Assembly (NCBI GenBank): GCA_965230395.1
Contig: CBDDKV010000002.1
Coordinates: forward strand, 6,456,926-6,520,925
Length of the DNA stretch: 64,000 nucleotides
Direction of reading: 5' to 3'
Source of the DNA: Bacteroidales bacterium
GTDB taxonomy: Bacteria > Bacteroidota > Bacteroidia > Bacteroidales > UBA10428
This document shows positions 40,439 to 62,100 of the stretch, in pieces (the stretch's first letter is position 1; the number at the start of each line of letters is the position of its first letter). The notes below the pieces were generated by a model. That model made no database searches, was not told where the DNA came from, and was given only the letters and a program-made list of their open reading frames with translations. The translations under genes were made by a program, and so were the position numbers.

Positions 40439-43400
40439 TTATTTTATCCTAGTGATTAAAATTGAAGTTTTATTTACCTCATCAATTTCAATCTCCACAC
40501 TTTCGGGATCATCCATGCTATTAACCAGTTCAATTTCTTTAGCCAATGTTTGCGAGCTAATATAATCCTTGAAATTGCTTATAGCTTCTTTCACATCAGG
40601 TGTGTCGATAATGCAGATATTAATCTTATCAGTTACCTCAAAACCACTTTCTTTACGTAGGTTTTGTATTCTATTTATTAATTCTCTGGCAATTCCTTCC
40701 TGCTTTAACCCTTCCGTTAAAGTAATGTCTAAAGCCACAGTCAGATTGTTTTCTGTAGCTACCAGCCACCCCGGAATATCTTCAGATGATATTTCTACGT
40801 CTGTAACCATTAAATCTATTTCCTGGTTATCTACGTTTATCCTAAAACTTCCTTTCTGCTCAATCTCAATAATATCATCCTGCGTAAAATTATTTACTTC
40901 AGCAGCAATCCGCTTCATAAGCTTCCCGTACTTTGGTCCTAATGCTTTAAAATTGGGTTTGATTTTCTTCACTAAGACACCTGATGTATCCGTGAGATAC
41001 TCAATTTCTTTTACATTAACTTCCGATAATATCAACGGGGCAATAGCTTTCAGTTGCTGTTCAAATTTTTCACTAAGAACCGGCACCATTATTTTTCCTA
41101 ATGGCTGACGCACTTTGAGGCTTTCTTTACGACGGAGTCCCAAAATCATAGACGATAACTGCTGGGCAATTTCCATTCTTTGTTCCAGATCTTTATCAAT
41201 AAAGTCATCATTATGTTGTGGGAAATCTGTATGGTGTACTGATTCTGCATTAAACCTTTTTGACACAGCATTTAAATCCCTGAATATCTTATCGGAATAA
41301 AATGGTGCAATCGGAGCAGAAAGCATTGCTATTGTTTCCAGGCAACTATATAATGTCTGATAGGCCGAGAGTTTGTCGATATCAAATTCGCCTCCCCAGT
41401 AGCGTTTGCGATTAAGCCTTACATACCAGTTACTTAAATTTTCGGTAACAAAATTCTGGATCGCCCTTCCGGCTCTTGTTGGTTCATAATTCTCATAATG
41501 TTCTCCAACTTCCTTTATTAATGTGTGAAGCAATGAGATAATCCATCGGTCTATTTCCGGACGTTCACGAACGGGGACCTCATCCCGGGAACTATCAAAT
41601 CCGTCCACATTTGCATACAAGGCAAAAAATGAATATGTATTATAAAGCGTACCAAAGTATTTACGCCGTACCTCTTCTACCCCTTCAACATCAAACTTTA
41701 AATTGTCCCAAGGCTGTGCATTTGTAATCATATACCACCGCAAGGGATCGGAGCCATATTTCTCAATTGTTTCAAATGGGTCTACTGCATTTCCCAGACG
41801 CTTTGACATTTTATTTCCGCTCTTGTCAAGCACCAGTCCGTTACTGATAATATTTTTAAATGCTACGGAATCAAAAAGCATGGTAGCAATAGCATGAAGG
41901 GTAAAAAACCATCCCCGTGTCTGATCTACTCCTTCTGCAATAAAATCGCTTGGGAATGCCTCCTTTAGTTCTTCTTCATTTACGGAAAACGGATAATGTA
42001 CCTGCGCATAAGGCATAGCTCCTGAATCGAACCAGACATCAATAAGATCGTTCTCCCGTTTCATTGGTTTTCCCAATTCCGAAACCAATATAATATTATC
42101 GACAATATGCCGATGAAGATCAACTTTTTTATAGTTTTCCGAAGAACAGTCCCCCGCTTGAAAACCCTTAAACGGATTCTCTGACATTAGCCCTTCTTTT
42201 ACGGATCTTTCTACTTCATTGTATAGTTCTTCCACAGAACCGATACACTTTTCTTCGCTTCCGTCTTCCGTTCTCCATATTGGCAGAGGTGTTCCCCAGT
42301 ACCTTGATCTGGAAAGGTTCCAGTCAACAAGGTTTTCAAGCCATTTTCCGAAACGTCCAGTACCTGTTGATTCTGGTTTCCAGTTAATCGTTTCGTTTAA
42401 TTTTATTAATTTCTCTTTTATTGCTGTTGTTTTGATAAACCATGAGTCAAGCGGATAATAAAGAACGGGCTTATCGGTTCTCCAGCAGTGGGGATAATTG
42501 TGTGTATGCTTTTCTATACGAAACGCTTTGTTCCCTTTTTTAAGCATTACAGAAATATCCACATCAATTGTAGGAGCTTTTTTATCTAACGACTCATCAT
42601 ACTCGTTTTTAACATATCTCCCTGAAAAGTCGCGATAAGTTTCAAGGTTTACATTTGCAGAAACAAACTTGTCATCTAAGTCTGCAATTCTTACAAACCT
42701 TCCCTTTTTATCTACAAGTGGCCCTGTTGCGCCGTCTTTATCAACAACAACAAGTGGGGAAATTCCGTATTTTTGTGCCACCCGGTAGTCATCGGCTCCA
42801 AAGGTAGGGGCTATATGAACAATTCCTGTTCCGTCTTCCGTTGTAACAAAATCGCCAACCAGCACCTCAAATGCCTTTCCTTCCGGCTTAATCCAGTTAA
42901 TGAGCTGCTCATAAAGAACACCTTCGAGATCCTTACCGGAATATTCAGCAAGTATTTTATATGGAATAGCTTTATCGCCTTCTTTGTAGTCATCAAAAGA
43001 AAGTTCATTATTTTTTGGATCAAAGTATTTATGCATCAGATCCTTCGCCAGAACCACAGTTACAGGTATACCTGTATAAGGATTGAAAGATTGTACTTTT
43101 ACGTATTTTATACCTCCCCCAACAGCCAAAGCTGTATTAGAAGGAAGTGTCCAGGGAGTGGTTGTCCATGCTAAAAAGTGAACTTCCTCTGTTTCGGTAC
43201 CTTCGAATAAAAATGCTGATTTTTCATTCCTGATCACCTGAAACTGGGCTACACAGGTTGTATCTTTTACATCACGATAACAACCCGGCTGGTTAAGTTC
43301 ATGCGAGCTCAGTCCGGTTCCGGCAGCCGGTGAATAGGGTTGTATGGTATACCCTTTATAAAGCATATCTTTATCGTACAACTTCCTGAGCAGGTACCAT

Positions 43401-43891
43401 AAAGTTTCCATGTATTTGCTGTCATAGGTAATATATGGTTCATCCATGTTTACCCAATAGCCCATCTGACTGGTCAGTTCCTCCCATTCGGAGGTATATC
43501 GCATCACATCCTCTTTACAGGCCTGGTTATATTCTGTTACCGATATTTTATCTGTCCCAATATCTTCTTTTGTAATACCCAGACGTTTCTCCACGCTTAA
43601 TTCAACAGGTAGGCCGTGAGTATCCCATCCGGCCTTACGGTTTACCAGATATCCCTTCTGCGTTTTGAACCTGCAAACAATATCTTTAATTGTTCGGGAA
43701 ATTACATGATGAATACCGGGCATTCCATTCGCTGAAGGCGGTCCCTCGTAAAACACAAATGGCCCCTTATCACTGTTTTTCCGAAGTTGTATGCTTTTCT
43801 CAAAGGCTTTCTCTTCAGCCCACTTTGAGGCATATTCCTTATTAATTTCGGATAGGTTGAAATTCTTGTATTCTGCGAACTTACCGCTCAT
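40439..43891 (-). CDS. ileS: Isoleucine--tRNA ligase (type 2)
   Basis: FYEGPPSANGMPGIHH, GWDTHGLP, AWTTTPWTLP, DWNLSRSRYWG and KMSKR; C-terminal DUF5915-like tail. Confidence 0.98.
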   Translation of the reverse strand: MSGKFAEYKNFNLSEINKEYASKWAEEKAFEKSIQLRKNSDKGPFVFYEGPPSANGMPGIHHVISRTIKDIVCRFKTQKGYLVNRKAGWDTHGLPVELSVEKRLGITKEDIGTDKISVTEYNQACKEDVMRYTSEWEELTSQMGYWVNMDEPYITYDSKYMETLWYLLRKLYDKDMLYKGYTIQPYSPAAGTGLSSHELNQPGCYRDVKDTTCVAQFQVIRNEKSAFLFEGTETEEVHFLAWTTTPWTLPSNTALAVGGGIKYVKVQSFNPYTGIPVTVVLAKDLMHKYFDPKNNELSFDDYKEGDKAIPYKILAEYSGKDLEGVLYEQLINWIKPEGKAFEVLVGDFVTTEDGTGIVHIAPTFGADDYRVAQKYGISPLVVVDKDGATGPLVDKKGRFVRIADLDDKFVSANVNLETYRDFSGRYVKNEYDESLDKKAPTIDVDISVMLKKGNKAFRIEKHTHNYPHCWRTDKPVLYYPLDSWFIKTTAIKEKLIKLNETINWKPESTGTGRFGKWLENLVDWNLSRSRYWGTPLPIWRTEDGSEEKCIGSVEELYNEVERSVKEGLMSENPFKGFQAGDCSSENYKKVDLHRHIVDNIILVSELGKPMKRENDLIDVWFDSGAMPYAQVHYPFSVNEEELKEAFPSDFIAEGVDQTRGWFFTLHAIATMLFDSVAFKNIISNGLVLDKSGNKMSKRLGNAVDPFETIEKYGSDPLRWYMITNAQPWDNLKFDVEGVEEVRRKYFGTLYNTYSFFALYANVDGFDSSRDEVPVRERPEIDRWIISLLHTLIKEVGEHYENYEPTRAGRAIQNFVTENLSNWYVRLNRKRYWGGEFDIDKLSAYQTLYSCLETIAMLSAPIAPFYSDKIFRDLNAVSKRFNAESVHHTDFPQHNDDFIDKDLEQRMEIAQQLSSMILGLRRKESLKVRQPLGKIMVPVLSEKFEQQLKAIAPLILSEVNVKEIEYLTDTSGVLVKKIKPNFKALGPKYGKLMKRIAAEVNNFTQDDIIEIEQKGSFRINVDNQEIDLMVTDVEISSEDIPGWLVATENNLTVALDITLTEGLKQEGIARELINRIQNLRKESGFEVTDKINICIIDTPDVKEAISNFKDYISSQTLAKEIELVNSMDDPESVEIEIDEVNKTSILITRIK

Positions 43892-44177
43892 TGATGCGTT
43901 TTTTTCTATGTTAAAAAAGTGTACAAATATAGACTTCTGGATATAAAAAAGCAAAGTGATTCTGTGTTTATTTATGTCTAAACCAAGTAAAATTGTTAAC
44001 CCGGATTATTCACAACTTACGTTTTAACCTTACTGTAAAATTTTGTTTTTCAATAATCGTTGAGAATACTTTGAGATAATTGGCATAACTAAAATTTGAG
44101 TATCGCTTGACATTCGCTTTACGGATCTGCTTTGTTACTAACTATTCGAACCTTTCGCCTGACACATACATTAATTA

Positions 44178-44402
44178 GAGTCTGTCTATAAAGTCCATGT
44201 TACTCACGTATTTTATATTTTAAAAGTGTTCGTGACCTTCGGTTTTAGTTTAAACTTGTGATTCTTCCGTTGTATGATAAGTCTTTTTTCAAATTCACCT
44301 GATTCCTGATGTGCTCAGGACCATTGCTGACAGCACTGACAATTTTCCAGATTAAATTAAGCCAGCCTTTCAGGCTGAGAACCTTAGTTTGTGGACAGGC
44401 TT
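44178..44402. mobile_element. MITE with IS5-like terminal inverted repeats
   Basis: Left GAGTCTGTCTATAAA vs reverse complement of right end AAGCCTGTCCACAAA (11/15); TA on both flanks; no transposase. Confidence 0.55.
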
Positions 44403-44456: not shown

Positions 44457-45506
44457 TTATATTGACCATCTTAAAATGGTAGATCCGGCATTCCATCTTG
44501 ATCCCATATCGGACAAAACTACCAAATCACCTTTCTTCAAAAGCTTTTTTTTGTAAGCATCCGTAGTTATAACCGGTATACTGGCAGTTTCTATACAAGC
44601 GGTTTGTTCCAAAGTATCATGAACCTTTGAGTAGTCAACATTAAGATTTTTGGCCCATTTTTGATTCAGTCCGAGAAACTTTTGAGCAAAAATGAACTTA
44701 TGAATATTATCCGGCCTGATCTCTAATTTTCTCAGGAGTTTAGTAATAGTATACGGTATTAGATTTTCGACGTATGGCAAATCATTTTCGAAACTGTCAG
44801 GGGCAATGGAAAAGAAAGGCTTTATGGAATAGTTTTTATCCTTGGGCCCCGCGTAGCCACCTTTTATTTTTACTTCCGCAGCAATTCCTTCATGAAACCC
44901 TGACATGAGATGAAAACCCTGAAACCCGTATTCAGGCTGTGTTGGTCCCAGAATGAAAGCACCGGCACCATCACCTACAAGAAGTGATTTCATTGTAGTA
45001 CTTTCTGTGTGCGTAAGTAAGGTTTCTCCGGAGGTAACCAAAACCTTTTTATAGAAACCGGAGCAAATAAAAGAAGCTGCTACTGTTATTGAATATATCC
45101 ATCCGGAAAAACCAGCATCAATATTTAATGAAGTGGCATTTTTAGCACCAATTGCAGATTGAATCGTTATACAATTGGGTGGCGTCAATTGGTTCATATC
45201 CCTACTCGTATGTGTGGCAATAACCAGGTCAATTTCTTCAGCCGGAATACCAGAGTCGTTAAGTGCATTCCGCGCGGCCTGGATAGCAAGATCAGTAAAG
45301 TTCATTTGATCGGAATAGTGTCGATATTTGATACCAGATGTATTCGAAATGAAAGAAGATTCTTCGTCTGTTAGTTTGGTGTTTGTAAAACAGTCATTTG
45401 CAATTTGTTTCGAAGGCAAAAAACAACCCACACCAAGAATACCAACCGGTTTTTGAGGAATAATTACCGGTGCGTCTGAAAGCTGAAATTTTGAGTTTAT
45501 TATCAT
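44457..45506 (-). CDS. FabH/KAS III-like protein lacking the catalytic triad
   Basis: Clear KAS III scaffold (GVGCFLP, SGIKYRH, LAIQAARNAL, GDGAGAFIL, TASIP), but DAGFSG (no Cys), FAQKF (no His) and TACIETAS (no Asn). Confidence 0.85.
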   Translation of the reverse strand: MIINSKFQLSDAPVIIPQKPVGILGVGCFLPSKQIANDCFTNTKLTDEESSFISNTSGIKYRHYSDQMNFTDLAIQAARNALNDSGIPAEEIDLVIATHTSRDMNQLTPPNCITIQSAIGAKNATSLNIDAGFSGWIYSITVAASFICSGFYKKVLVTSGETLLTHTESTTMKSLLVGDGAGAFILGPTQPEYGFQGFHLMSGFHEGIAAEVKIKGGYAGPKDKNYSIKPFFSIAPDSFENDLPYVENLIPYTITKLLRKLEIRPDNIHKFIFAQKFLGLNQKWAKNLNVDYSKVHDTLEQTACIETASIPVITTDAYKKKLLKKGDLVVLSDMGSRWNAGSTILRWSI

Positions 45507-45647
45507 GTTCTTAACGTATTAACTTTTTTTATTAACAAATTTAGTTTATTTTTATAATAAGAGTTGAGTGTATTGAGCATCATTTTGGGTAAAGAAATTC
45601 TTCAAATATTTTACTTATTAAATAATTATAAATCTTATAGGTGGTTT

Positions 45648-46052
45648 ATGGAAAAACAAATTGCTTCAAATCAAAATTTTACCATTAAAGTAAATACGCA
45701 AAAAAATCGTATGTATGCAACTTTTAATGGTTTTTGGGGAGACGAGAAGATTATTGATGATTACATCGAAAACATGAAGACTGCATTGACATCATTGCAG
45801 CGCAACTTTACTCTGGTGGCGGATCTGAGAATGTTTAAAACTCTTCCTAAAGAGTTAGTTGATAAACAAAAACAGTCTATGCAAGTGTTGGCTTCTGCCG
45901 GAATGTTCAAAGTTGCAGAAATAGTTCCCCAAAGCGTTATTGCCAGCATGCAGTTAGAGCAATCTGCATCGGAATCGAATATGCCAAACCGACAATTTGC
46001 TGATGTTCCATCCGGAGAGAGATGGCTGGACAAGGAAATAGCAGCACTATAA
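45648..46052 (+). CDS. Small STAS/SpoIIAA-like hypothetical protein
   Basis: Start reassigned to ATG 45648. FTIKVNTQKNRMYATFNGFW...FTLVADLR...AGMFKVAEIV...FADVPSGERWLD. Confidence 0.7.
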   Translation: MEKQIASNQNFTIKVNTQKNRMYATFNGFWGDEKIIDDYIENMKTALTSLQRNFTLVADLRMFKTLPKELVDKQKQSMQVLASAGMFKVAEIVPQSVIASMQLEQSASESNMPNRQFADVPSGERWLDKEIAAL

Positions 46053-46093
46053 ATAATGAGAAATAAGAAGAAATTCTCATTGAAATAATAGAG

Positions 46094-46131
46094 AAAAAGA
46101 AGGTTTCTATACTGAAAACCTTCTTTTTTTT
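46094..46131. terminator. Bidirectional intrinsic terminator
   Basis: AAAAAGAAGGTTTC...GAAAACCTTCTTTTTTTT between convergent genes. Confidence 0.8.
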
Positions 46132-46172
46132 ATCATTAAGATGATGTTATATCGGAACCCGGAAAATAATAT

Positions 46173-47372
46173 TTATCTCAAACAGTTTTGAACTAGCTTT
46201 TCAGGAATATTCATAATAATAGCAATATGATTTTCTCCTGCCCCGGATGAAGCAATAAGTACTTTATTACCCGAATTTATTAACCCTTTTTCTATCGCGT
46301 CGAGTAGATTAATACCAGCGCTGCAGGTTGCAATATTGGCATTTTCCTTAAACGTTTCGTGAAATTTAATTTCCGGAACCCCTACAGCCTCTCTCCATGC
46401 ATTTCCTGCCCAGGCCACCGGTTGATGCGTAACAAAAAAATCAAGATCATTTACTGTTATTTCAGCCTTTTCTAAAGCTTTATCTACAACATACTTCAGG
46501 TCAGACTGAGCATTTTTAGCAATTAACTTTAGCGAAGCCTGGTTTAGAAAAGTTACGAAATGCTGATTGTATTTTGGGCCTAATTCTGTTGTCTTTAAAA
46601 GTAGAGGTTCTCTTTCTGTAAAAACAACACCGTCATGTCTATCTCCATGACTATGAGAGTATGAAGAAATGTAACCTTCATTATTGTCAACCGCACTAAC
46701 AATACCTGCAACAGAAGCATCGCCGGTATCAACACTCCAGTAGGTCGATTTGTCATTAATAATAGTATCAATTATACTGCTTACAATTAATACATTTTTC
46801 TTGATACCCGTTTTTACTAATGCCGTTGCTACTTCAACCATTGTTACAAAGGTTGAACAGCAGGTATCAATAGAATATGCCCCCGAGTTTTTTAAACCCA
46901 ATTTGTGTTGTAAGAGAGAAGCGTTAGTGGGTAATGGCCTATCTGGCACCTGTGCATGCGACAACACTAGATCTATTTCGTCAGGATGTAGTCCGGAATT
47001 TGTTATTGCTAAAGCTCCGGCAATGGTTTCTGCATCCGATGGGAGCATTGGGTGTGGGTAAACCGATTCTTTTACCGATACAGGATCCATAGGAACCCGC
47101 CTTCTGCTCTCCGTTCCCTGAAAAGGATCTTTTTGTTTCTTTTCAGGTAAACTTTTTACCCAGGCCTCAAACCATGGTTTGCTTTCCCATCCCTGGTGGT
47201 TCGATTCCGTGTAACCGGGTAGTTCTCCTGTAGTTTCAATGGAATGGATGTACGCTTCATTTAGTTGTGTGTGCGAGCGAAGATAATCTACCAGTCGTTC
47301 CTTTTTTTGTTCAGAGATTTTCTTTCCTGGTAAATAACCTCCCAACGAAATTAATCCAACATTTTGTTTCAT
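46173..47372 (-). CDS. FabH/KAS III-like condensing enzyme with intact Cys-His-Asn triad and an N-terminal insertion
   Basis: Start reassigned to ATG 47372. SIDTCCSTF, TGDAS, THQP, ANIATCS and SSGAG. Confidence 0.88.
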   Translation of the reverse strand: MKQNVGLISLGGYLPGKKISEQKKERLVDYLRSHTQLNEAYIHSIETTGELPGYTESNHQGWESKPWFEAWVKSLPEKKQKDPFQGTESRRRVPMDPVSVKESVYPHPMLPSDAETIAGALAITNSGLHPDEIDLVLSHAQVPDRPLPTNASLLQHKLGLKNSGAYSIDTCCSTFVTMVEVATALVKTGIKKNVLIVSSIIDTIINDKSTYWSVDTGDASVAGIVSAVDNNEGYISSYSHSHGDRHDGVVFTEREPLLLKTTELGPKYNQHFVTFLNQASLKLIAKNAQSDLKYVVDKALEKAEITVNDLDFFVTHQPVAWAGNAWREAVGVPEIKFHETFKENANIATCSAGINLLDAIEKGLINSGNKVLIASSGAGENHIAIIMNIPEKLVQNCLR

Positions 47373-48004
47373 GTGCAATAGATTTAGTTTTTCTGCATAT
47401 TGTTTTGATAGTAAGTACAATATTAGATTAAGCTTAACAGCTTTTAATTTAAAACTACATTTCGTGTTAAATGTAGAATTTCAATTAATGGAGAATGAAT
47501 AACTTTTTAGGGTTATCTCAATACCATCATTTTCATCTCAGTCAATAAATGCTTACTTTATATATAAAGTTAAAAAAAAATACAAGAAATATTATCGGAA
47601 GATTTTTTTTCTGAAAAATTTTCTAGTAGTGCGACCACAAAATAACAATTCATATTTCACACTTCTTTTTCCTTTCTATTGCGTTTAAAATCTTAAACAT
47701 AGTTATACTATGCTTTATAAATTTCGCCTTACAAAAAGAAAAAATAAACCCCTATAGATTAAAATCCATGCAATGCCTTCTTCCGTAAACCACACATATT
47801 CAGATTAACAATTTGTCCACTTAACGCGATTAAAAGGTCGACTTTAGGAGCAAGATATCCCACATTGTATTTTGCTATTAAATACCTATTTTACAGTAGT
47901 TTACACTAAGATATATTTGTCGGTATTTTATCCGTTGTTAAAAATATAGCTTTTTAAAACTTCATCCAACAATAACATGCCCATCGCTCTCTGAATTAGG
48001 GGCT

Positions 48005-49741
48005 TTAGAAGCTCCCCTCAAAATTCATTTTCTTGTCCTCCCGTTTTACAAGGAAGTTGAACATGTAGCTGTAGGCAAAGTTTACTGAATAACGGGTTGA
48101 CGTGCCCTGTAATCCGTTGTTGTTGACCATTGCCCAACTAAGGTTGAAGTTGTGCCGCTTTTGTAAGGTGTACCCCCCGGTTAAGCGCAGGTTGACAATG
48201 TTGGCTATTGTCCCTTCATTGTTTGAGGAATTGCTGTATGTCCCAATAAATGCTGCTTTAAAACTCTCAAAAAATGCCTTTTGTACCGACAGGTTGTAAC
48301 TCATAACAGTCATGGTGGTTTCCGGCATTTTGTTGTGGTTATGGTTTACCGAGGTTGATATGTTCAAACGCTGCGGTATCAGGGAAAACTGGTACGATAA
48401 GGTTGAGTTGTATATCTGGTTCCCGACAAACCGTTCATCGTCTTCCTGTTGTTCCGATGCTTCCTGATAGGTGAACCCGGCATTCAGGTTCTGCCGTATT
48501 TGTTTAGTGCTTTGAATGATGTAGTTCAGGTTGATGGATTCTGTCAGGTTTAACTGGGTGAACGACAAAGTGTCCAGGTTCTCAAATTCGTTGGTCTGGG
48601 TTACCTCGTTGTAAATGTCTTTAATGTGGACATGCGTCTGCAAATTCGAGATGCTTCCGGCCACGTTCAGTTTCTTTGTAATTGCTGATGATACATTGGC
48701 CGAGTAAATCATCCGTGCGCTGGTGTTGGTTTTCTGTTCTTCCAGGTTGTCGCGCTGGTAACCGGCATCCATCGCAAGGTTCACCCGTTTCTTTATTGAA
48801 GTTGAAAAGTTGGCGGTGATGTTTTCAAAGTCGTTGTTGAAGTAATAGGCCCCTAATGTTTTATAATTTGGGTCCACCCTCTCATAAGTTGCCCCTATCT
48901 GCCCAATTTTCGAGCTTTGGCCTATGCTGGCCTTAAATGCATGATAAGTCGATTTGTCCCCATCGCGGGTCAAAAACAATCCCCCTTCTGATGGCAGGCT
49001 GTCAATTTTGCTGATGTCGTGGTTCATGGCACTTATGGCATATTCTGCCATAAACGACAGGTTATTGACCATTTTCAGGTTGATGGCCGCACTTCCGCAG
49101 ATGTTGTCCTGCGGTTTCAGGTAGGTGCTGTCCGGTTCCGGAAAGTAGACGGAGTTTTCACCGTCTTTTGCTTTGAACACATTGACGCTTGCATCTATTT
49201 TTTCGTTCAGGTATTCGAGTTTCAGCCCACCCCCCATGCGTTTGTAGGACGGCCCTGTCCCGGTTGTGTCCGGGTTGACTGCTTTTCTTAACCTTCCGTA
49301 CATGGCCGATATTTTAAATGTTTCTCCGGGGGTAAGTTCTACGCCTCCGCCCAGAAATTCGTGCCCTGCCAAGGTGTAGGGCGAAAAGTTCATGCTGGCA
49401 TACCCAATGTGGGTTGTTATCCATTTGTAAGATGGTGACATCGAAAAGCGGTTAAAGGGCTGGGGCAGTTGGGACGTTACCTGGTTGTTCGTATAGGCAA
49501 ACGAGAACGGCAGGTTGACCACCCCGAACAGCATGGTGTTGATGTTCCCGGACAGGTACCAGGAGTAATCGTTCCCCGGGGTGTTGGTGTCGGGTGAGAA
49601 ATTGGCGATATGGCTCATGGACACCCCGCCATTGGTTGTCATGATGGGTGCTTTTGCCACTTCTTCGATGTCCTGGGCGTTGATGTTTCCGGTAAGCGCC
49701 AGGGCTGTAATGATAAAAATAATGATTAATACTTTTTGCAT
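48005..49741 (-). CDS. Predicted outer-membrane beta-barrel protein of the TANFOR-toxin locus
   Basis: Signal peptide (INA-Q); amphipathic beta-strands throughout; ends ...SVNFAYSYMF...EGSF. Confidence 0.7.
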   Translation of the reverse strand: MQKVLIIIFIITALALTGNINAQDIEEVAKAPIMTTNGGVSMSHIANFSPDTNTPGNDYSWYLSGNINTMLFGVVNLPFSFAYTNNQVTSQLPQPFNRFSMSPSYKWITTHIGYASMNFSPYTLAGHEFLGGGVELTPGETFKISAMYGRLRKAVNPDTTGTGPSYKRMGGGLKLEYLNEKIDASVNVFKAKDGENSVYFPEPDSTYLKPQDNICGSAAINLKMVNNLSFMAEYAISAMNHDISKIDSLPSEGGLFLTRDGDKSTYHAFKASIGQSSKIGQIGATYERVDPNYKTLGAYYFNNDFENITANFSTSIKKRVNLAMDAGYQRDNLEEQKTNTSARMIYSANVSSAITKKLNVAGSISNLQTHVHIKDIYNEVTQTNEFENLDTLSFTQLNLTESINLNYIIQSTKQIRQNLNAGFTYQEASEQQEDDERFVGNQIYNSTLSYQFSLIPQRLNISTSVNHNHNKMPETTMTVMSYNLSVQKAFFESFKAAFIGTYSNSSNNEGTIANIVNLRLTGGYTLQKRHNFNLSWAMVNNNGLQGTSTRYSVNFAYSYMFNFLVKREDKKMNFEGSF

Positions 49742-49849
49742 GGTTTTGTTTGCTGCTTCTTAATTTAACCTTTGTGTTATTTACGTGGCATACATTCTTT
49801 GCTTTTCAAATTTCGACGGCAGGTGCCACGCCACCCCCGTCTTTGTGTT

Positions 49850-49895
49850 CCCAGGGCGTTGCCCCGGGCTAAATTGGCCTGCCCTTTCAGGGCGG
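49850..49895. repeat. REP-like GC-rich palindromic element
   Basis: CCCAGGGCGTTGCCCCGGG followed by GCCCTTTCAGGGC. Confidence 0.6.
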
Positions 49896-49939
49896 TCCCA
49901 AACTCCCTGGCCGACAGCTTTAAACACATAAAACTTCAC

Positions 49940-49980
49940 CCATAACCCATAACCCATAATTCATAACTCATAATTATATA
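49940..49980. repeat. Heptamer tandem repeat (CCCATAA/CTCATAA units)
   Basis: CCCATAA CCCATAA CCCATAA TTCATAA CTCATAA TTATATA, immediately after the Fn3 gene stop. Confidence 0.8.
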
Positions 49981-52038
49981 TCACATTTTCACTGTTATCG
50001 TTTTGCTTAGGGCCGATGTGCTTCCATCGCCGTAGACTGCTTTGATGGCATACCGATATGTTTTTTCTGGCCTGATTTTTTTGTCCATGAATATATCTTC
50101 TTCGGAGTTTCCGTATAGGCGGAGCTGTCCGTCCCCCTCCGCACGGTATACCAATATGCGTTTTACTTCTTTTTCTGACTCTATCTTCCAGGTGAGTTTC
50201 ACCCTGTCGGTCTGTGCCCGTTTCTTTAGTTTGATGCTTTCGGTTATGCCTGATGGCATCTTGAAATACCCCGTGTTTGATGGCGGCGATTGCAGTTTGC
50301 TGTCATCTATTGCTGTTACGTAATACACATATTCTTTCCCGGCTTCGGTCTGTTTGTCTGTAAAGGTTGAACGGGTTTCCGGTTGCTTTTCTATTGTCCC
50401 GATTTTCTGGTACAGGCTGTCTGTCATTTCTTTCCGGTAAACATGGTGGTGTATGACATCGGTACTGGAGCTGTTTACCCAGGTTAGTTCCGGGTTGCCG
50501 TCTTTTCCTTCGATGTTTTTAAGTACCGGGGAGACTGGTGGTATAATGTCCGGGCGTTTTAGGGTCAATAATTCGGAGAATGCCGACTGGTTCTGGCGTA
50601 CATCCACGGCTTTTACTTTGTAGTAAATGTTTTTCGTTAATGTTTTTATGTTGATGGAATCGGTAAATACGGTGTCCTTTATTACTGCCGGGGCTGCCAG
50701 CATAAACTCAAACTTTGGGTTGTTTGCCCGGTAAACCCGGTAGCCTTCCAAATCCTCATCACTGTTTGGTAGCCAGGTGATGGCCACTTTTCCGGTGCTG
50801 TCTACTTTTCCCAAAAGTCCTGTTGGTGGTCCCGGCGGGAAGCTGTCTACCCGCTCGGCATAGGTTTTTATGGATGAGAATTTTTCCGTCTGCTGGTTGT
50901 AGACTGAAATCATGTAGTAATTCGTAAAGTTGGCCGTGCTGTCGGTAAATTCCCGGCTTTCCGGTTCTTTTCCTTCATAGACCAGTTTTTTTCTTCCCTT
51001 TGGTTTTGTGGAGCGGTATAGCTTAAACCCGGAAATATATCCGTTCATTTTTTGTGGGTATTCCCATTGCAGTTTTACCTCTTTGTTGTCGATAACCTGG
51101 TGGTCTGTTATTACTGGCGCTGTTGTTATGGGCAATGTCCCGGTCCCGAAAACAGAATCTGATGGCGGGCCAACTTCCCCAAAGGCACTGGTCCCCCTTA
51201 CCCTGTAATAAAAGGTTGTCCTGTTGTCGGGAAAGGTGTCTGTTTTGTACATCCTGTCCGGGTTTACGCCCTTATCTGATACCTGTACAATGGCATTCTC
51301 ACTGGCCCTTTTGTATGTCTTGCCCCCGTCTGTCGATTTTTCCAGTATGTAGCTGTTGTAAATATGGTTGAGGTACTGGATGTTCCATGACAGGTTGGCT
51401 TCCTTGTCTTTCCATTCGGCTTTTAATCCTATGGGTTTTGGCAATGGCTGGTATTCGGACAGGCCGGTAAATGCAAATGCCGTATCGCTTGCCAGTGAAT
51501 CCGGGCAGTTGATATAGACCCTGTACAGGTATTTTTCGTCCGGTTTTGCGGTTTTGTCCGCAAGGTACAGCCCCGAAAGTTCTGCTGCCGTTAGTGACTG
51601 GTCGGCAGCGAATAAGGCAAAACTGAACCTGTGTTTTTCTTCCTTGTACTTTTTGTAGGCGATATGCGGGTTGCCTGCCGCTGGTATATCTTTATAATAA
51701 GAACCATAGATACACTCGGCCGCTATTCCAATGTATTTGTTGCCGTCTACGTGTCTTTCCCATTTCTCTAATGGTGCCGGCTTGTATGGCTCCGGGGTAA
51801 GGGTTGTTTCCGGGATGTCTTTAGGGATTTTCTTACCCTGCAAAACAGTGTAGCGCTTTACAATGTAGCCGTATTCATTCCCTAACCGCCAGGTTTTACT
51901 GTTTGCCGGTGCCCAGCGCAGCAGGATAGAATTCTGACGCGGGGAACACAGGAGCTGGATGTTTTCTTTTTGCGCCTGTACTTTTATGCTTATTGCCAAT
52001 ACTGCTATTAGTAGTGCTTTGTATTTACTTTTAAACAT
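49981..52038 (-). CDS. Secreted multi-fibronectin type III domain protein
   Basis: Signal peptide (VQA-Q); repeated Fn3 patterns (ILLRWAP, LSWN...YILEKS, ITWLPNSDEDLEGYRVYR, YYKVKAVD, YRYAIKAVY). Confidence 0.88.
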   Translation of the reverse strand: MFKSKYKALLIAVLAISIKVQAQKENIQLLCSPRQNSILLRWAPANSKTWRLGNEYGYIVKRYTVLQGKKIPKDIPETTLTPEPYKPAPLEKWERHVDGNKYIGIAAECIYGSYYKDIPAAGNPHIAYKKYKEEKHRFSFALFAADQSLTAAELSGLYLADKTAKPDEKYLYRVYINCPDSLASDTAFAFTGLSEYQPLPKPIGLKAEWKDKEANLSWNIQYLNHIYNSYILEKSTDGGKTYKRASENAIVQVSDKGVNPDRMYKTDTFPDNRTTFYYRVRGTSAFGEVGPPSDSVFGTGTLPITTAPVITDHQVIDNKEVKLQWEYPQKMNGYISGFKLYRSTKPKGRKKLVYEGKEPESREFTDSTANFTNYYMISVYNQQTEKFSSIKTYAERVDSFPPGPPTGLLGKVDSTGKVAITWLPNSDEDLEGYRVYRANNPKFEFMLAAPAVIKDTVFTDSINIKTLTKNIYYKVKAVDVRQNQSAFSELLTLKRPDIIPPVSPVLKNIEGKDGNPELTWVNSSSTDVIHHHVYRKEMTDSLYQKIGTIEKQPETRSTFTDKQTEAGKEYVYYVTAIDDSKLQSPPSNTGYFKMPSGITESIKLKKRAQTDRVKLTWKIESEKEVKRILVYRAEGDGQLRLYGNSEEDIFMDKKIRPEKTYRYAIKAVYGDGSTSALSKTITVKM

Positions 52039-52073
52039 GAAATTAAAAATCATTACTTTTTATTTTTTTCTAG

Positions 52074-52375: not shown

Positions 52376-53383
52376 CTAATCATTACGTTTCTCAAATACA
52401 TGAAAAGTGTTATCTCTTGTAAGCACATATAAAACCGAATCATATACTTGAATATCTACCACTTGTCCATTCTTTGGTTTAAAGTTATAAACCCATTTAA
52501 GGTTATTATTATTTAAATCCAATATACCTACTCTGGAAAAGTTTTCCCCAATGTTTTGTACAAAGTAAAATTCGTTATCTTGAACAACAAATTTATTTGG
52601 CCAAATCTGAAGTTTCTGTCTTTTTAAAACACTTATATAATCAATTGATTTACTTTTTAAAGTAACAGGATCCAAAATTTGAACTTGGTTCGGATATCTT
52701 ACACAATACAGTTGATTATTGAATTTTATGAAATTCCCTCCAAAATTATCAATTTTTTCAATTACGTTTCCAGTTTTTCTATTTAAACAAAAAGTAGCTG
52801 ATTGCTTCTCTGATGAAGCATAAAAGATAAGTCGATCTTTGATAACAATTACATCAGATTGGATTTGAGTATTCACTCCTAATAATTGTTCTAAACCATA
52901 TCTCCAAAGAATTTCACCATCAATTAAAGATTGACAAACCAATCCATTTGAAAACTTTAAGAATGATTCGCTTTTGAAAACTGCTTTCAATCTTCCGTCA
53001 GATAAAGAACAATAGTCTTTGATAGTATTTGTTTGAATGTTGAATGTTGAAATGATCACTTCATCACCCATTCCTTTTTCAAACCAAATTTCATCATCAT
53101 TAATTTGAACTGGAAATATATCCATTTCCAGAGAATCTGTAACTTCTCCTGTCTTTTTACTAACCTTCCTTAATAACTGATATTGATGAAAGGGAAGTAT
53201 ATAATTCTTGTTACTAAATGACAACCACTGTGTTTCTAATTCTGGTGTCATCCATACCAAGTTATTTAAATTATCATATTTACACAGTTTCGAATCAACC
53301 GTAAACAGGTATATCCCGTTTTCTTCAATTAATGAAATTGAGCCAATATTATTTAAAGATTGAATTAAATAATGTATCATCAT
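52376..53383 (-). CDS. Putative immunity protein, PQQ-like beta-propeller
   Basis: No signal peptide; very AT-rich; overlaps the toxin stop by 35 bp; propeller-blade motifs CQSLIDGEILWRY, CLNRKTGNV and LDLNNNNLKWVY. Confidence 0.65.
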   Translation of the reverse strand: MMIHYLIQSLNNIGSISLIEENGIYLFTVDSKLCKYDNLNNLVWMTPELETQWLSFSNKNYILPFHQYQLLRKVSKKTGEVTDSLEMDIFPVQINDDEIWFEKGMGDEVIISTFNIQTNTIKDYCSLSDGRLKAVFKSESFLKFSNGLVCQSLIDGEILWRYGLEQLLGVNTQIQSDVIVIKDRLIFYASSEKQSATFCLNRKTGNVIEKIDNFGGNFIKFNNQLYCVRYPNQVQILDPVTLKSKSIDYISVLKRQKLQIWPNKFVVQDNEFYFVQNIGENFSRVGILDLNNNNLKWVYNFKPKNGQVVDIQVYDSVLYVLTRDNTFHVFEKRND

Positions 53384-56300
53384 TAAACTTATTTATAAAA
53401 TCATCAATGTTTCTTATTTTGACATCTGGGAAAAATGATTGTAGCTTTCCATCATTAAATAATGGTTTCAGTGCATCTTTCCCCTTTTTTGAAGAAAGAT
53501 AATTAATCAAATCTGATTTAGAAAGCTTAGAATTGCCAAGTTGTTTCCATGATATTTGAGATAAATAATTTGCATTAAATAAATCTCTCTCAATAAACTC
53601 GTCTATTATTTCATCCTTGTTAATTTTTCGGTCCATCCATTTTACTTCAACATACTTCGGGCGGTTACCTCCAATTTCTATATCAATTTTTGAATTACGA
53701 TTGGTTTGTCGAATATTTGGAACATCTAGTTCAAACGTAAGATTTTTACCTTTGTATTCATTTATATTTTCCGTTATCTCTTTAATTACTCCATGAGCTC
53801 CTTTTCGTTTTTGAATAGTGGTCCTTTTAGATAATTGGTCAACAATTTTACTAAAGTCATTAAGATGAGTTCCTTTGTTTTTTTTAATAAAATTGGTCAA
53901 TAAATTCAGCTGTTCAAGAACATTTGCATATCCATGCGGAGAATAGTGTCCTGCAATATTTCCCAGTATCTCGTCAGTTAATCCTAAATTGAGCCTATGT
54001 GTATTGCTTCGTAGATTATTTAATGCCTCTATTGCATCCATATTTCGGGTTAATGCCTTTGAAAGATCTCCACTTCCTGTACGTCCATTTCTATAAAGAA
54101 TATCCCAGCTATCCACTAATCCAGAATTTGCATCAAATTTGTGAAGCTTTTGAGAACTATTTCCAAAGCCTGCCATAAATTCATCCCACTTCTTAGTACT
54201 CCATCCGGAGAAAGGTGTTTTATTCTTTAATGAGGCAATAATTTCATCAACTGAGCCAATAGTCTGGTCAATAATTTCATCAAGCTTTTTAAGTTTATCG
54301 GTATCATCAGATAATTTAGATATTTCCTTTATCTGATCTTTAGAAATTTTCTTTTCCTTGTAAAGCTTTGTAAATAGATCTGACTTTCCTTTTAATAGAG
54401 CAGGATCAGTAAATTTTAATAGTCCTGCAGCTGCTTCATCATAGAGGTCTGCTTTTGATAAAACTTTAATGAATTTTTTACTATTATCAAATATCCAGAC
54501 AGATCCCTTATAAACTACTTTTATCAATTCAGGTCCATACTTAAACACAACAGAACCGACCCCAACTGCTGCAAGACCAACGGAATATGCGGTTATATTA
54601 TCAATATCCCCTCTAAAAGAAGAATATGCCAAACCAGCTACATCCGCAAAATTATCTACTATTGGAATTAGACCTGCAAGATCAATTATTGTATATATTA
54701 TCGGATCTATCACCGACAACTTCGAAAATCCATATATGTATTTATCCAGATCCTGGTAATTATCGTGAGGGTCATCAGCATCACTGCTTCCAAAAGCAAT
54801 ATTTAATTCATTCCACCACTCCAGAAATCCACTTGTTACAAATGCCTGCTTTGTTGCAAACATCATCACGTTTTCTTTTGTAATGTATTTTTCCTTAAAG
54901 ATTTTTGATGTTACTCTTTCCCAACCATTAGGATCATTTTTGGCCTGCTCAAGTAAATTAATTACCTGAATATCATACTCAAATTTTTCTATATCATAAT
55001 TTGGGTTCTTTATGGTTGAACCTCCCCCTGCAGATGCGATGAAAATATATTCGTCTGGTTTATTCAGTTTCCTGATTCTATCAAACTCAGGTCTTTTGTA
55101 AAATGTCACAGTATTAATGTATGAATAACCATACTCATTCCCGTTATCCTTTTCATCGTATGAGATTGTACCATCGGCATTTAAACATGCTACAAATTGC
55201 CTGCAAGGTTTTTCCAACCACTTGTATGCCCCAATTATGTATTGATAGGTAGTTTTATAGTCTCCATCATAAAAATCCTTTTTAAGAATATGAGAGGCAT
55301 CATGTATACCGGGCATCATGTATTGCCATTTAACACCTGTGATATATTTTTCAACACTTGTAAACGGAAGAACGATAAGTATTGTGTTCTCCTGGAAATT
55401 AGCCGGTAAATTTGGACTTGCTGCTTCATAAACGGAAGTTGAAAAATCATTAGCAAGAGAATAATTATTATCGTAATCAAAAATGAACGGAACATACCCC
55501 GCTATAACGAAAATCGTTTTTCCGGTTTCTTCTTTTAAATACTGTAGTTTATGTTCAAGTAATGAAAGGTTTTCAACTCTGTTTTCAAATTGAAGTAAGT
55601 CTGCATTTATTATATGATAGAATTTATCTCCATATAAATTAGGGTCATTTTTAGCTGTTGGATATTTATTGGCCGCAGAAACTAATACCTCTGCAAATTT
55701 GTTTATGTATTCATTGGAAAGTTCTTTCTGGACTTCGTTATCAACCTCTTTTTTTATATCAAATCCTGTAGGTTTGAATTTTTCTTCAAATACCTTTTTA
55801 GCACGAATATTACAGGCAGCCTTATCTTTTAAAGATCCAAATTTACTTTTATATTCATCACTAAATATTAGCTTTTCTTCATCTATTGTACCTGTACCCG
55901 TTTTATTTCCATCTTCCAATCGATCTTTAACATGTTTGAATTTTATATTATATAGTTCAACCTTGCACTTACCTATATACCCAAGTACAACATCTGAATC
56001 ATCTGTTAAAGTAGCAGTTTGATTATCTACAACGCATTCCGGCTTGTCATCTGTGTACTTGTATCTTTTATTAATTTTTTCTTCTGCCGGATTTATAAGT
56101 TTCGAATAACCATGGAACTCTTTCGTTTTTCTATGATAAATTCCGGTATATTTTTGTTTGCCTATAAAATAAGCTGTAACAGCACCTTCAGGAATATCAT
56201 CATTTATGCCAACAAAAGAAATAGAGGTTACTCCATCGGGTAAAGTAAAAGGTATACCTGCCGGAGTAAGACACGTAATTTTACCTTCTAATTCTACACC

Positions 56301-59069: not shown

Positions 59070-59079
59070 CTTTTCTAGT

Positions 59080-59155
59080 TATAAATTATGAGTTATGTGT
59101 TATGAGTTATGAGCTGTTTTTTCACTTATCACTCATAACCCATAACTTATCACTA
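59080..59155. repeat. Two inverted arrays of heptamer repeats
   Basis: TTATAAA TTATGAG TTATGTG TTATGAG TTATGAG ... CTTATCA CTCATAA CCCATAA CTTATCA. Confidence 0.8.
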
Positions 59156-59158
59156 TTT

Positions 59159-62100
59159 TTATTCTATAATCATTTTAATTTGTCGGCGCTCGTCTTTTGC
59201 ATTCAGCATGATAACATAAGCCCCTGAGTTCAATCCTCCAAACTGATAGTCAAACACATACTCCTTCAGTCCGTAATCAAAGCGTTCATCAATGATGTCG
59301 CCATAGCTTACACTGAACAGTACAACCCTGACATCTGCCTCTTCGCGCAATTCAATTTTTAGCTGGAAGTTTCCATCGTTCGGATTTGGCATTACCAGCA
59401 GTGATTTTATAAGCGGTTCCCTGTAACCGATAATTCCGGTTGTATCACCTGAATCGCTGCCCTCAGTTATTTCTACCTGTTTTGAAACTTTGGAAATACA
59501 GCCTCCGGAATATGCCCACAATTCAACATTGTAAATTCCTGTTTGCTTACTTTCCAACTCGAATACATATGAAGGTAGCTCGTTATGTGTTACATCAATA
59601 AAAGCTTCGTTATTGAATATCCACTTCAGGCTGTCAAGTTCAAGGTTCGACAATTCAAAAATTGACATGGTATCTCCAAGATAACTTTCGGATGTCATAA
59701 GAAATTCGGCATCCAGGGCATCGTTTCCAATTGTCAGTCCTATTGAGTCCCACGCAAAGCAACCGATGCTGTTTGTTACCTCAAGGAAGTATTCTCTTTG
59801 ATCGCCAATTTCAACAAACCGTTCATTTGAGATAACTCCGTCGGTAGTTGACCATTTATGGGTTGAGAATTCCTGTCCGTCAATTGTGATTGTATTTCCG
59901 GGACATATCTGTATATCTTCCCCTAAATCAACAATTAGTTTATCCGGTTCATCTATTTCAAATGCCTGGTCAAAACGGCAGTTATGCTTGTCTGTTAATA
60001 TCAGGCTATATGTTCCTTTGTAAAGTGAATCGGCTATATAGGTTGTATCTCCGTTTGTCCATTTGAATTTATACCCTCCGACACCTCCAATGGGCTTGAA
60101 GTCGATAAAGCCGTCGTTATAACCAAAGCAGTGAGCATCTTTTATTCCGGCAACTTCACCCCATAGCGAGTCAGGGTGATCAATTTCGTAACTCCGGCTT
60201 GTAAAGCAATTGTGCTTATCGGTCAGGTAAAGGCTGTAAATTCCCTTCTTAAGTGTATCGGCTACATTTGTAGTATCTCCATTCGACCATTTATACCGGT
60301 AGCCTCCAACTCCGCCTTCTGCCCTGATTTGGATATATCCGTCATTGTATTTAAAGCAATCGGCATCTTTTATTCCGGTAACAACACTGTTTAGGGAGTC
60401 GGGATGATCAATTTCGTAATAATTTGTTGTTGTACAGTTATGGGTGTCGGTTAACAATACGCTATAACGTCCTTTGTAAAGGGTATCGGCAGTATTTGTG
60501 GTATCTCCATTTGACCATTTGAATTTGTACCCGCCAACGCCTCCAAGTGCCTGAACCGTAATGTGGCCATCGTTATATCCATAGCAATCGGCATCTTTGG
60601 AGTCTGTCAATACTGTTGTTACAGAATCGGGCTGACCGATTGCAAACTGGTCGAGTGTTTCGCATTTGTTAGAATCGGTGACCAATACTTCATACTGACC
60701 GATATAAAGTGAATCGGCAGTATTCGTGGTGTCGCCATTTGACCATTTGAACCTGTAATTCCCTACTCCCCCGGTTGCACTTACTTTGATAAATCCGTCG
60801 TTATAACCATAACAGTCAGCATCTTTAGCGCTCTCAAAAATTACTTTTAATGAATCGGGCTGTGTTATTTCGAAGTATGTCGTTGTTGTACAGTTATTCG
60901 TATCGGTAATGGTTGCCGGATATGTTCCTATTGCATATCCCGTTGATGTTGGCCCGGTATCTCCGTTTGACCAAGTAATCTGGTACGGTGCAAATGGCAC
61001 TGCCGGTTCTGCTTTTTTCACGGTTGCCGTTCCGGTATTCCCCCCGAAACACAATACCCTGGTGGTATCGATGTCGGTTATTACAGGGTTGACAGACGGG
61101 TTTATCCGTTGTTCCAGTTTTTGCGGACAGTTATGAACATCCAGAACATTAAGGAAATACAATCCGCTTTGTTCAAGTGCTGATACTGTACTGTCGGTAC
61201 TTAATGTGTTATGGGCTGCATCTCTCCACTGGTAACGATATGGACGTGTCCCCCCCTGCATGGCCACCGTTATTGAGCCGTTATCTGTTTCGCATGTGGT
61301 ATGTGTTACATCGATTTTATTGAACAACAACGAATCGGGCTCCGGCATATAAACGGTTAATGTATCCTGACCAACGCAGTTGTTGCTATCAGTAAATACA
61401 AAGGTGTAATGTCCCTCTGAGAGGTTTCCTGCCGTTGTATCTTTTGTCCAGACATTCGGGGCTGTTTCAAAGGCAAACCTGTATGGTTTTGTACCCCCGT
61501 CAACCGAGAAGTCAATAACTCCGTCTGATGCACTTTTACAGTTTACACTGTCTACAAATTTGGTTTTTGCCCTGAGGTATTCCGGTTCGGTAATGATGAT
61601 TGTCACGCTGTCTTCCACTCCCATTTTATCGGTGAGGTAGAAATAATGTTCCCGCACATCGAGGTTGAGCCAGTTTTTACTGTTTGAATAATATTCTGAG
61701 CGGTCCTGGCGGAACTGGTAATCTCCCCATCCTCCTTCGGCTTCAAGCTTTACATAGGCATCTTCGTAGTCTTTACAGCTTTCGTTACGGAATTCTGTAA
61801 TACTTATCTTTAGTGGTTTTTTCGGTTGTTTTATTTCAATGGTTGCTGTTACAGGGTTGCCATACTTATCGGTTGCTGTAAATTTATATTTTCCGGCCAG
61901 GGCATTGGTTAACACTCCTGCACTTTCAAATGCTTCTGTATCCAAAGACATTGTTGGGGATGCCAGTGATTCCCATTTATAGGTATTGCCTCCTGCTCCT
62001 CCTGAAACATCTACTTTTATGGTTCCGCTGGCTTCTCCAATGCGTTTTGCGTGGTTAACCTGAACGTCGGAAATGTAAAAGCGTTCGTAAGGTTTTATTT

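Follow-up and report, generated by a model that had tools for sequence, protein, structure and literature searches.

A 64,000-nucleotide stretch of Bacteroidales DNA (contig CBDDKV010000002.1, positions 6,456,926 to 6,520,925), called the window below, carries a locus of three genes at 44457-47372. They encode a condensing enzyme of the 3-ketoacyl-ACP synthase III type (KAS III, FabH fold; ACP, acyl carrier protein) with an intact catalytic triad, a KAS III paralogue in which all three triad residues are lost, and a small protein with a predicted STAS-like fold; the two KAS III genes and their products are called active and dead in what follows. On the reading favoured here, at a probability of roughly 0.45, the active and dead proteins would be subunits of one heteromeric condensing enzyme, which would have arisen independently of PqsBC and LstAB, its analogues, and would make a hydrophobic small molecule. 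This reading is favoured because of the triad status of the two proteins, their co-occurrence, the abutment of their genes in other genomes, their co-diversification, the purifying selection on them, the PqsC-like fold of the active enzyme and the precedents of PqsBC and LstAB.

Organization of the locus

The three genes are flanked by ileS (40439-43954, minus strand) and by a stretch of raised G+C at 48.0-52.0 kb. The features of the locus are listed below with the basis of each assignment (aa, amino acids; AF2, AlphaFold2).

46173-47372, minus strand: active KAS III (FabH-fold) condensing enzyme, 399 aa (Pfam, alignment, AF2 model)
46094-46128, no strand: hairpin of 14 pairs with A-run and T-run flanks, at the convergent stops of the active and STAS-like genes (consensus match only)
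45648-46052, plus strand: small STAS/SpoIIAA-like protein, 134 aa (AF2 model and Foldseek)
45507-45647, no strand: A+T-rich divergent intergenic region of 141 bp between the dead KAS gene and the STAS-like gene (limits of the open reading frames)
44457-45506, minus strand: triad-less KAS III paralogue (pseudoenzyme), 349 aa (Pfam, alignment)
44362-44378, minus strand: terminator-like hairpin about 80 nt past the stop of the dead KAS gene (consensus match only)

The longest open reading frame (ORF) of the active gene spans 46173-47420; the start conserved in its family, at 47372, gives 399 aa, and the relatives measure 397-420 aa. Likewise, the longest ORF of the STAS-like gene is 45564-46052 and its family-conserved start at 45648, also used by the homologue P0044, gives 134 aa. 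The gap between the active and dead genes measures 667 bp and holds the STAS-like gene on the opposite strand. An earlier interpretation of this DNA, referred to as the sequence-only reading, had described the two FabH-fold genes at these positions and on these strands, with a 134-aa STAS-like gene between them on the other strand and no ACP nearby. All of this holds: no PP-binding (ACP) match lies within the window, the nearest being about 39 kb past its end. Its claim of a terminator between the KAS genes is sustained in part. The 14-pair hairpin with its T-run is indeed present at 46094-46128 and would be terminator-like in both directions, but it is a consensus match only, and the count of terminator-like elements in the region (4) is not above that of shuffled sequences (2.8, standard deviation 1.8). 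The divergent region 45507-45647 is a possible shared control region of the dead KAS and STAS-like genes; no significant repeat or operator was found in it. More widely, a repeat search and a promoter scan of 43.9-48.0 kb returned nothing above chance, promoter-like matches being no more frequent than in shuffles.

The dead paralogue belongs to a conserved family without the triad

Both proteins have the KAS III fold according to Pfam, with PF08545 and PF08541 scores of 46.9 and 54.2 bits for the dead protein and 31.0 and 53.4 bits for the active one, above the respective cut-offs of 24 and 26.6. Both stay below the NCBIfam cut-offs for FabH: PRK09352 gives 162.4 bits for the dead and 120.1 bits for the active protein (cut-off 249), and TIGR00747 gives 154.5 and 111.2 bits (cut-off 292.1). 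In HMMER alignments to solved FabH chains, the triad positions of the full-length dead protein are occupied by Phe133 in place of Cys (GFSGW), Ala274 in place of His (FAQKF) and Cys304 in place of Asn (TACIETAS), as the sequence-only reading had recognized.

This loss is shared by a whole family. A word-index search returned 28 relatives of the dead copy at 41-67% identity, separated by a gap from ordinary FabH, which does not exceed 30%. Among the 29 aligned proteins, the window's included, the Cys site holds Phe in 27, Tyr in one and Cys in one (P0008, genome G050), the His site Ala in 27 and Gly in two, and the Asn site Cys in 28 and Ser in one (P0029). The triad is also lost in six further loci, where three of the four subfamily-B loci have Ala at the Asn site, and neither His nor Asn occurs at its triad position in any of the 29 proteins or further loci. 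Mean column identity is 65%, equal to that of the active family. In subfamily A, conserved residues surround the former active site (NIDxGFxGW, FAQKF, ACxETxSIP), and the polar residues D130, S202, S238, D242 and D333 are invariant in the family; the pocket motifs differ between the two subfamilies, with Cys versus Ala at the Asn site and Ala versus Gly at the His site. Cys304 was considered as a replacement nucleophile and rejected because it is not conserved in subfamily B. One member, in G050 (L098, 8430-9476), has regained the Cys (GCSGW) and still lacks His and Asn; it is also the dead gene that is separated from its active counterpart by 39 kb.

Between two species of one genus, the proportions of nonsynonymous (pN) and synonymous (pS) differences are 0.13 and 0.76 for the dead gene and 0.14 and 0.77 for the neighbouring active gene. 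Synonymous sites are saturated in most pairs (pS 0.71-0.93), so that pN and pS are given here and no ratio. Together with the 28 relatives lacking His and Asn, these values bear out the expectation of a conserved triad loss under purifying selection: the loss is ancient and maintained by selection; the dead copy represents a conserved pseudo-KAS III and not a case of recent decay. In a quick maximum-likelihood tree, the dead family forms one group (SH-aLRT 100) on a long stem and the active family another (99), the former not being nested within the latter. The dead-family profile matches ordinary FabH first among solved structures (2.1e-51) and PqsC at 2.9e-23, and no chain named PqsB is found among the best 60 of its 76 PDB matches. 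As ordinary FabH is thus its nearest solved relative, the dead family appears, within those best 60 of 76 matches, to be an offshoot of ordinary FabH that arose independently of PqsB.

Other searches for the dead family were dominated by ordinary FabH. A scan of genome contigs with the dead-family alignment was swamped by it through the GDGAGA pattern, and only L013 among 80 loci held a true relative; L014 (34% identity) was rejected as a normal FabH with Cys, His and Asn. With the single protein as query, a scan of metagenome contigs gave three loci, all ordinary FabH at 27-28% identity, and the ESM Atlas yielded only generic '3-oxoacyl-ACP synthase III' clusters.

The active enzyme has an intact triad and resembles PqsC

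In the same type of alignment, the active protein retains the complete triad, with Cys172 (the second Cys of DTCCS), His (THQP) and Asn (ENANIAT). Its N-terminal insert, previously put at about 50 aa, measures about 55 aa and lies between strand 1 and the first long core helix. About 97 residues separate strand 1 from the helix matched to FabH residues ~52-65; the corresponding distance in FabH is estimated at about 40 residues, the helix position likewise being an estimate. C171/C172, H316 and N346 do not vary in any of the 30 active-family sequences of alignment A4, whose columns average 65% identity; strong conservation extends to the insert (LPG-x-ETN-xx-GW...PW...PFQG...R-x-RVP...PHPM-x-SDAE). 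The family is large, with at least 400 proteins at E <= 1e-40.

The AF2 model of the active enzyme has a mean predicted confidence (pLDDT) of 93.9, and its best solved match is PqsC, which in its own solved structure is the catalytic half of a heterodimer with a triad-less partner, with a query-normalized TM-score (TMq) of 0.76 in Foldseek versus 0.70 for the best FabH. VIA-align ranks them in the same order (PqsC, Z 42.2 over 333 residues at 2.0 A; Bacillus subtilis FabHA, Z 40.0 over 307 residues), the margin of PqsC over FabH being modest. The window's genome has an ordinary fabH elsewhere, at C2:135055-136026, and four FabH-fold genes in all in its 6.85 Mb.

The small protein belongs to a general-purpose STAS-fold family

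The product of 45648-46052 has no Pfam or NCBIfam match of its own. Its AF2 model (pLDDT 92.8) is predicted to have a STAS/SpoIIAA-like fold, in agreement with the sequence-only reading: the best Foldseek matches in the PDB are SiaC (E 3.9e-5), the STAS protein 4xs5 from Dyadobacter (target-normalized TM-score, TMt, 0.69), SpoIIAA, RsbS (TMt 0.73) and the DUF3478 protein 2q3l (TMt 0.71). A word-index search with this small protein recovered two proteins only, and an exhaustive profile search was used instead. The profile, built from ten homologues, matched 2694 cluster representatives at a threshold of E <= 0.001, of which 452 also pass E <= 1e-10; most of the matches are proteins of about 130 aa that stand alone. 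PF11964 (SpoIIAA-like) is touched by 16 of 42 sampled matches, eight of them over the cut-off, and a paralogue from the window's own genome scores 23.6 bits against it (E 8.9e-5; cut-off 25).

Homologues of about 125-132 aa adjoin KAS genes in five other loci: L098 (one copy, beside the dead gene only), L100 (two intact copies and a broken one), L101 (three copies), L102 (two copies) and L107 (two copies, beside the active gene only). STAS-like genes, in one to three copies, thus accompany either KAS partner. The broken copy of L100 (9282-9536; G137:C43:86145-86532) follows straight after the dead gene and is interrupted by one TAG and one TAA. The family has six matches in the window's genome, including the window's own gene, and eleven in G050. 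In L109 (G000:C2:5490500-5500500) and L114 (G050:C2:57700-68000), a STAS-like paralogue precedes genes for a bacterial GRAS-family protein and a class I/II aminotransferase, and this neighbourhood is a second conserved context of the family. Since it has many stand-alone members and other contexts, the small STAS-fold family is general-purpose, not private to the KAS system.

Several functions of related proteins are relevant here. According to excerpts of PMC2954212, SpoIIAA-like DUF3478 proteins resemble CRAL-TRIO carriers, and the transport of small nonpolar molecules was proposed as their role. To judge from PDB titles, SiaC activates a diguanylate cyclase; the STAS domain of YchM has been crystallized with ACP (as cited in part of PMC3340395). 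The neighbours scanned in the window and in L098-L108 include no partner-switch kinase or PP2C phosphatase.

Occurrence, linkage and co-diversification

The dead family is absent from 24 genomes of the same genus, where the best match has 29% identity, like ordinary FabH. Among 400 other genomes drawn from the order, it was found in four and the active family in nine; none of 400 other genomes drawn from the class contains the dead family. The DNA upstream of ileS in two congeners carries unrelated genes (a histidine kinase gene, and DUF4861 together with a SusC-like gene). From this sparse occurrence and from the unrelated DNA of the congeners, it follows that the gene trio is accessory and patchy. 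A divergent pair of genes encoding 348 and 125 aa upstream of a congener's ileS was considered as a dead/STAS-like pair and rejected, the resemblance being one of size only. Relatives of both KAS proteins occur in Marinilabilia, Carboxylicivirga and Prolixibacteraceae, and the active family extends to a metagenome-assembled genome of the Desulfobacterota.

Where the dead gene is present, so is the active one: this is the case in all five genomes with a dead gene, the window's own included. The two genes overlap by 20 nt in L013 and are separated by gaps of 5 nt in L100, 4 nt in L101 and about 56 nt in L102. Eight further dead/active protein pairs come from contigs of identical size (2538, 2872, 8864, 12586, 16987, 38413, 49005 and 818319 bp), which are taken to be the same contig. 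The distance matrices of the dead and active proteins are strongly correlated (13 pairs; Mantel r 0.915, with none of 5000 permutations as high). This correlation shows co-inheritance; contact between the two proteins is not shown by it alone, because kin share history.

Neighbours of the active gene in other genomes

The neighbours of the active gene were surveyed by Pfam scan in 11 loci, the window included. The dead gene is present in five of them, and five have STAS-like genes (the window, L100, L101, L102 and L107). Genes for methyl-accepting chemotaxis proteins (MCPs) lie within 3 kb in four (L013, L103, L105, L106) and short-chain dehydrogenase (SDR) genes also in four (L013, L104, L105, L106). 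Glyoxalase-fold and B12-dependent mutase-like genes are seen in two loci of one genus (L105, L106) and mevalonate-pathway genes in one (L104). The idea that homologous clusters would sit with MCPs or acyl-CoA ligases is thus borne out for the MCPs; no acyl-CoA ligase is conserved, and an acetyl-CoA-synthetase-like gene is convergent with the active gene in L108 only.

Several of these loci have features of their own. In L105 (1-4150) and L106 (7239-12607), the active gene heads a cluster encoding a glyoxalase-fold protein, an SDR, a 147-aa protein, a B12-binding protein and a MutE-like mutase subunit, with a dCache MCP gene upstream; this cluster may represent a different pathway built on the same condensing enzyme. 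In L104 (7462-13871), the active gene overlaps the start of an SDR gene, followed by genes for hydroxymethylglutaryl-CoA (HMG-CoA) reductase and diphosphomevalonate decarboxylase, which hints at an acetoacetyl-CoA-synthase-like role in that genome. Short MCPs of 371-372 aa are encoded directly 3' of KAS genes, on the same strand, in L013 (8118-9236) and L103 (8515-9630); judged by eye, the hydrophobic segments of the L013 protein run into the signalling part and leave no room for a periplasmic sensor domain. The window's genome contains about 19 MCP-type matches, among them four full-length relatives of this short type, one of which is located about 5 kb away from a tandem array of three STAS-like paralogues (L112). 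The window itself encodes an MCP with a four-helix-bundle sensor (5228-6886, minus strand), about 38 kb from the trio.

Proposed mechanism and alternative explanations

In a heteromeric condensing enzyme of this kind, Cys172 of the active subunit would be acylated by an acyl thioester before a Claisen-type condensation. The dead subunit would take the place of the second FabH monomer in a pseudo-symmetric dimer, and its invariant QL-T-PP-N loop, which we take to lie at the FabH loop lining the acyl pocket of the partner, could reshape the pocket of the active subunit. The STAS-like protein or proteins may bind the nonpolar product and hand it on, or else dock a carrier protein. The MCP genes found beside the active gene elsewhere weakly suggest that the product is sensed.

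A number of observations weigh against this model. In the window, the active and dead genes belong to separate transcription units, and a gene on the opposite strand intervenes. Their distance in G050 is 39 kb, and the second dead copy of G137 sits at the end of a contig that carries neither active copy. The active family also outnumbers the dead one, with at least 400 members versus 28. Of the ten genomes of the order sample that bear the active gene (own included), five lack a dead orthologue, their best dead-profile matches (~1e-34) being partial, as for ordinary FabH. Pairing is therefore not obligatory, the active enzyme presumably working there as a homodimer, and the co-occurrence anticipated by the sequence-only reading stands in one direction, from dead to active, but not in the other. 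In addition, G050 has a dead gene next to a STAS-like gene with no active gene alongside, and in G257 a STAS-like gene adjoins the active gene but no dead gene. The Mantel correlation may stem from shared descent alone, and eight of its 13 pairs rest on equal contig size, not on DNA sequence. Finally, no ACP, acyl-CoA ligase or tailoring gene is conserved beside the KAS pair in the 11 loci, and the active enzyme keeps its Asn, unlike PqsC.

Some of these observations favour the main alternative, in which the active enzyme would suffice on its own as a homodimer. The dead copy would then bind the substrate or product outside that dimer, as a sensor, a sequestering protein or a regulator acting with the STAS-like protein; the sequence-only reading had already raised the sensor role. 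What keeps this alternative live is the G050 locus, where a dead and a STAS-like gene sit side by side away from the active gene, and the five genomes with an active gene alone speak for it as well. In the window, these two genes diverge across 141 bp and a hairpin parts them from the active gene; the surroundings of the former active site are strongly conserved in subfamily A, as for a pocket in use, and the nearest folds of the small protein are those of partner-switch or activator proteins (SiaC, SpoIIAA, RsbS). However, the overlap or the 4-5 nt gaps in L013, L100 and L101 are more in keeping with co-translated subunits, each dead subfamily has pocket motifs of its own, and the scanned loci show no conserved anti-sigma kinase, PP2C phosphatase or DNA-binding domain beside these genes. 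This explanation is possible, if somewhat unlikely.

Two further explanations were considered. As an enzyme with a non-canonical site, it could act before or after the active KAS III, for instance as an acyltransferase or a decarboxylase, and KAS III-like proteins that work with altered triads do exist, such as DpsC and CerJ. The strong conservation, the new invariant polar residues D130, S202, S238, D242 and D333, and the Cys found at the Asn site of 28 of the 29 members would agree with such a function. This Cys is nevertheless replaced by Ala in three of four subfamily-B loci and by Ser in P0029, 28 of 29 members have Phe or Tyr at the Cys site, and no nucleophile is conserved across both subfamilies at the triad positions, which makes a catalytic role of this sort improbable. 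The loss of all three catalytic residues would also be expected of a decaying duplicate without function, but the open frame is full length, 28 relatives at 41-67% identity show the same loss, the pN and pS values (0.13 and 0.76) match those of the active partner and the family forms one clade, so that decay is hardly credible.

Returning to the heteromeric condensing enzyme, its consequences extend beyond this locus. A non-catalytic paralogue as working partner is known for only a handful of KAS III enzymes (PqsBC, LstAB), and the trio would be an independent third case, in another phylum, with a dead subunit of ordinary-FabH origin kept by selection. The natural variants (active alone; active with dead; either with STAS-like genes) make the role of the pseudoenzyme partner testable by comparison of products. 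The active proteins themselves, at least 400 in number, make up an uncharacterized family of well-conserved condensing enzymes that combine a PqsC-like fold with the conserved insert and whose genes often adjoin those of chemoreceptors. A much bolder proposal, and a long shot, is that anaerobic Bacteroidales use the active enzyme to synthesize a new diffusible signal of lipid-like nature, that the dead subunit sets chain length or product identity where present, that the SpoIIAA/CRAL-TRIO-like proteins shuttle the product and that the short MCPs of L013 and L103, with their multiple membrane passes, are its receptors. If true, this would be a self-made chemotaxis or quorum cue, and the synthase-carrier-receptor layout would be new to description.

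Adjacent DNA in the window

The stretch at 48005-52053, directly upstream of the trio, has a G+C content of 0.45-0.48 versus about 0.36 on either side and is probably horizontally acquired. It contains two genes: the product of one (578 aa) starts with a signal-peptide-like segment and has no Pfam match, and that of the other (690 aa) contains FN3. Beyond it, two giant ORFs with a G+C content of 0.28-0.30 occupy 53349-59069 (minus strand, 1906 aa) and 59159-64000 (minus strand, open end, more than 1613 aa). The 1906-aa protein has an FN3 match and, by eye, a zinc-protease-like HELGH motif; its ORF is followed by that of a 335-aa protein without Pfam match (52376-53383, minus strand). The whole region 52376-64000 looks like foreign DNA, and the giant-ORF product is perhaps a large secreted or toxin-like protein with a partner.

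Comparison with known systems

No paper on the active or dead family, or on an association of KAS III with STAS proteins, was found in the open-access literature searched. Compared with the canonical FabH homodimer, both proteins share the fold and the Pfam domains, and the active copy the same triad; unlike it, both fall below the NCBIfam cut-offs, one being triad-less and the other bearing a large insert. The KS-CLF (ketosynthase-chain length factor) pairs of type II polyketide and aryl-polyene synthases also combine an active condensing subunit with a nucleophile-less paralogue. They are, however, of the KAS I/II type (PF00109/PF02801) and have a dedicated ACP, whereas both proteins are KAS III here and the window has no ACP. 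As for the small protein, it has the fold of the SpoIIAA-like/DUF3478 family (PF11964) and of SiaC, and its relatives reach PF11964; it differs from them in having no Pfam match in the window's copy and no partner-switch kinase or phosphatase genes nearby.

The LstAB (Streptomyces toxytricini, lipstatin) and OleA type offers a parallel in its adjacent KAS III-like genes. LstAB is an obligate KAS III heterodimer whose genes always co-cluster, according to excerpts of a review (PMC12141560). Its second subunit supplies a catalytic Glu, unlike the dead family, whose loop (QL-T/A/C-PP-N) contains no acidic residue; beta-lactone or ole genes are absent near the KAS pair here, and the phylum is another. 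This loop is assumed to correspond to the Glu position of LstAB from the alignment and from the landmarks FabH Phe87 and OleA Glu117, not from a structure.

Among the closest precedents is PqsBC, the 2-heptyl-4-quinolone synthase of Pseudomonas aeruginosa. The analogy drawn by the sequence-only reading survives in part: the active enzyme is structurally nearest to PqsC, but the dead protein appears to derive from ordinary FabH, and neither a pqs-like nor a lipstatin-like context was seen. According to excerpts of PMC4807248, PqsB lacks all three triad residues and is thought to act as a scaffold, and PqsC has a Cys-His dyad only, whereas the active enzyme keeps its Asn and bears an insert of about 55 aa. 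Further differences are that the dead protein is full length (349 aa) and nearest to ordinary FabH, not to PqsB, that the flanks of the 11 loci and the window contain no pqs-type genes (anthranilate-CoA ligase, PqsD, PqsE; no pqsA/D/E-like genes), and that the pair is not always adjacent, the active enzyme being often alone and STAS-like genes standing alongside. What the two systems have in common is a pair of FabH-fold proteins, one of them without the whole triad, a catalytic subunit for which PqsC is the best solved match, and a product that is presumably not a fatty acid, made with no dedicated ACP encoded nearby.

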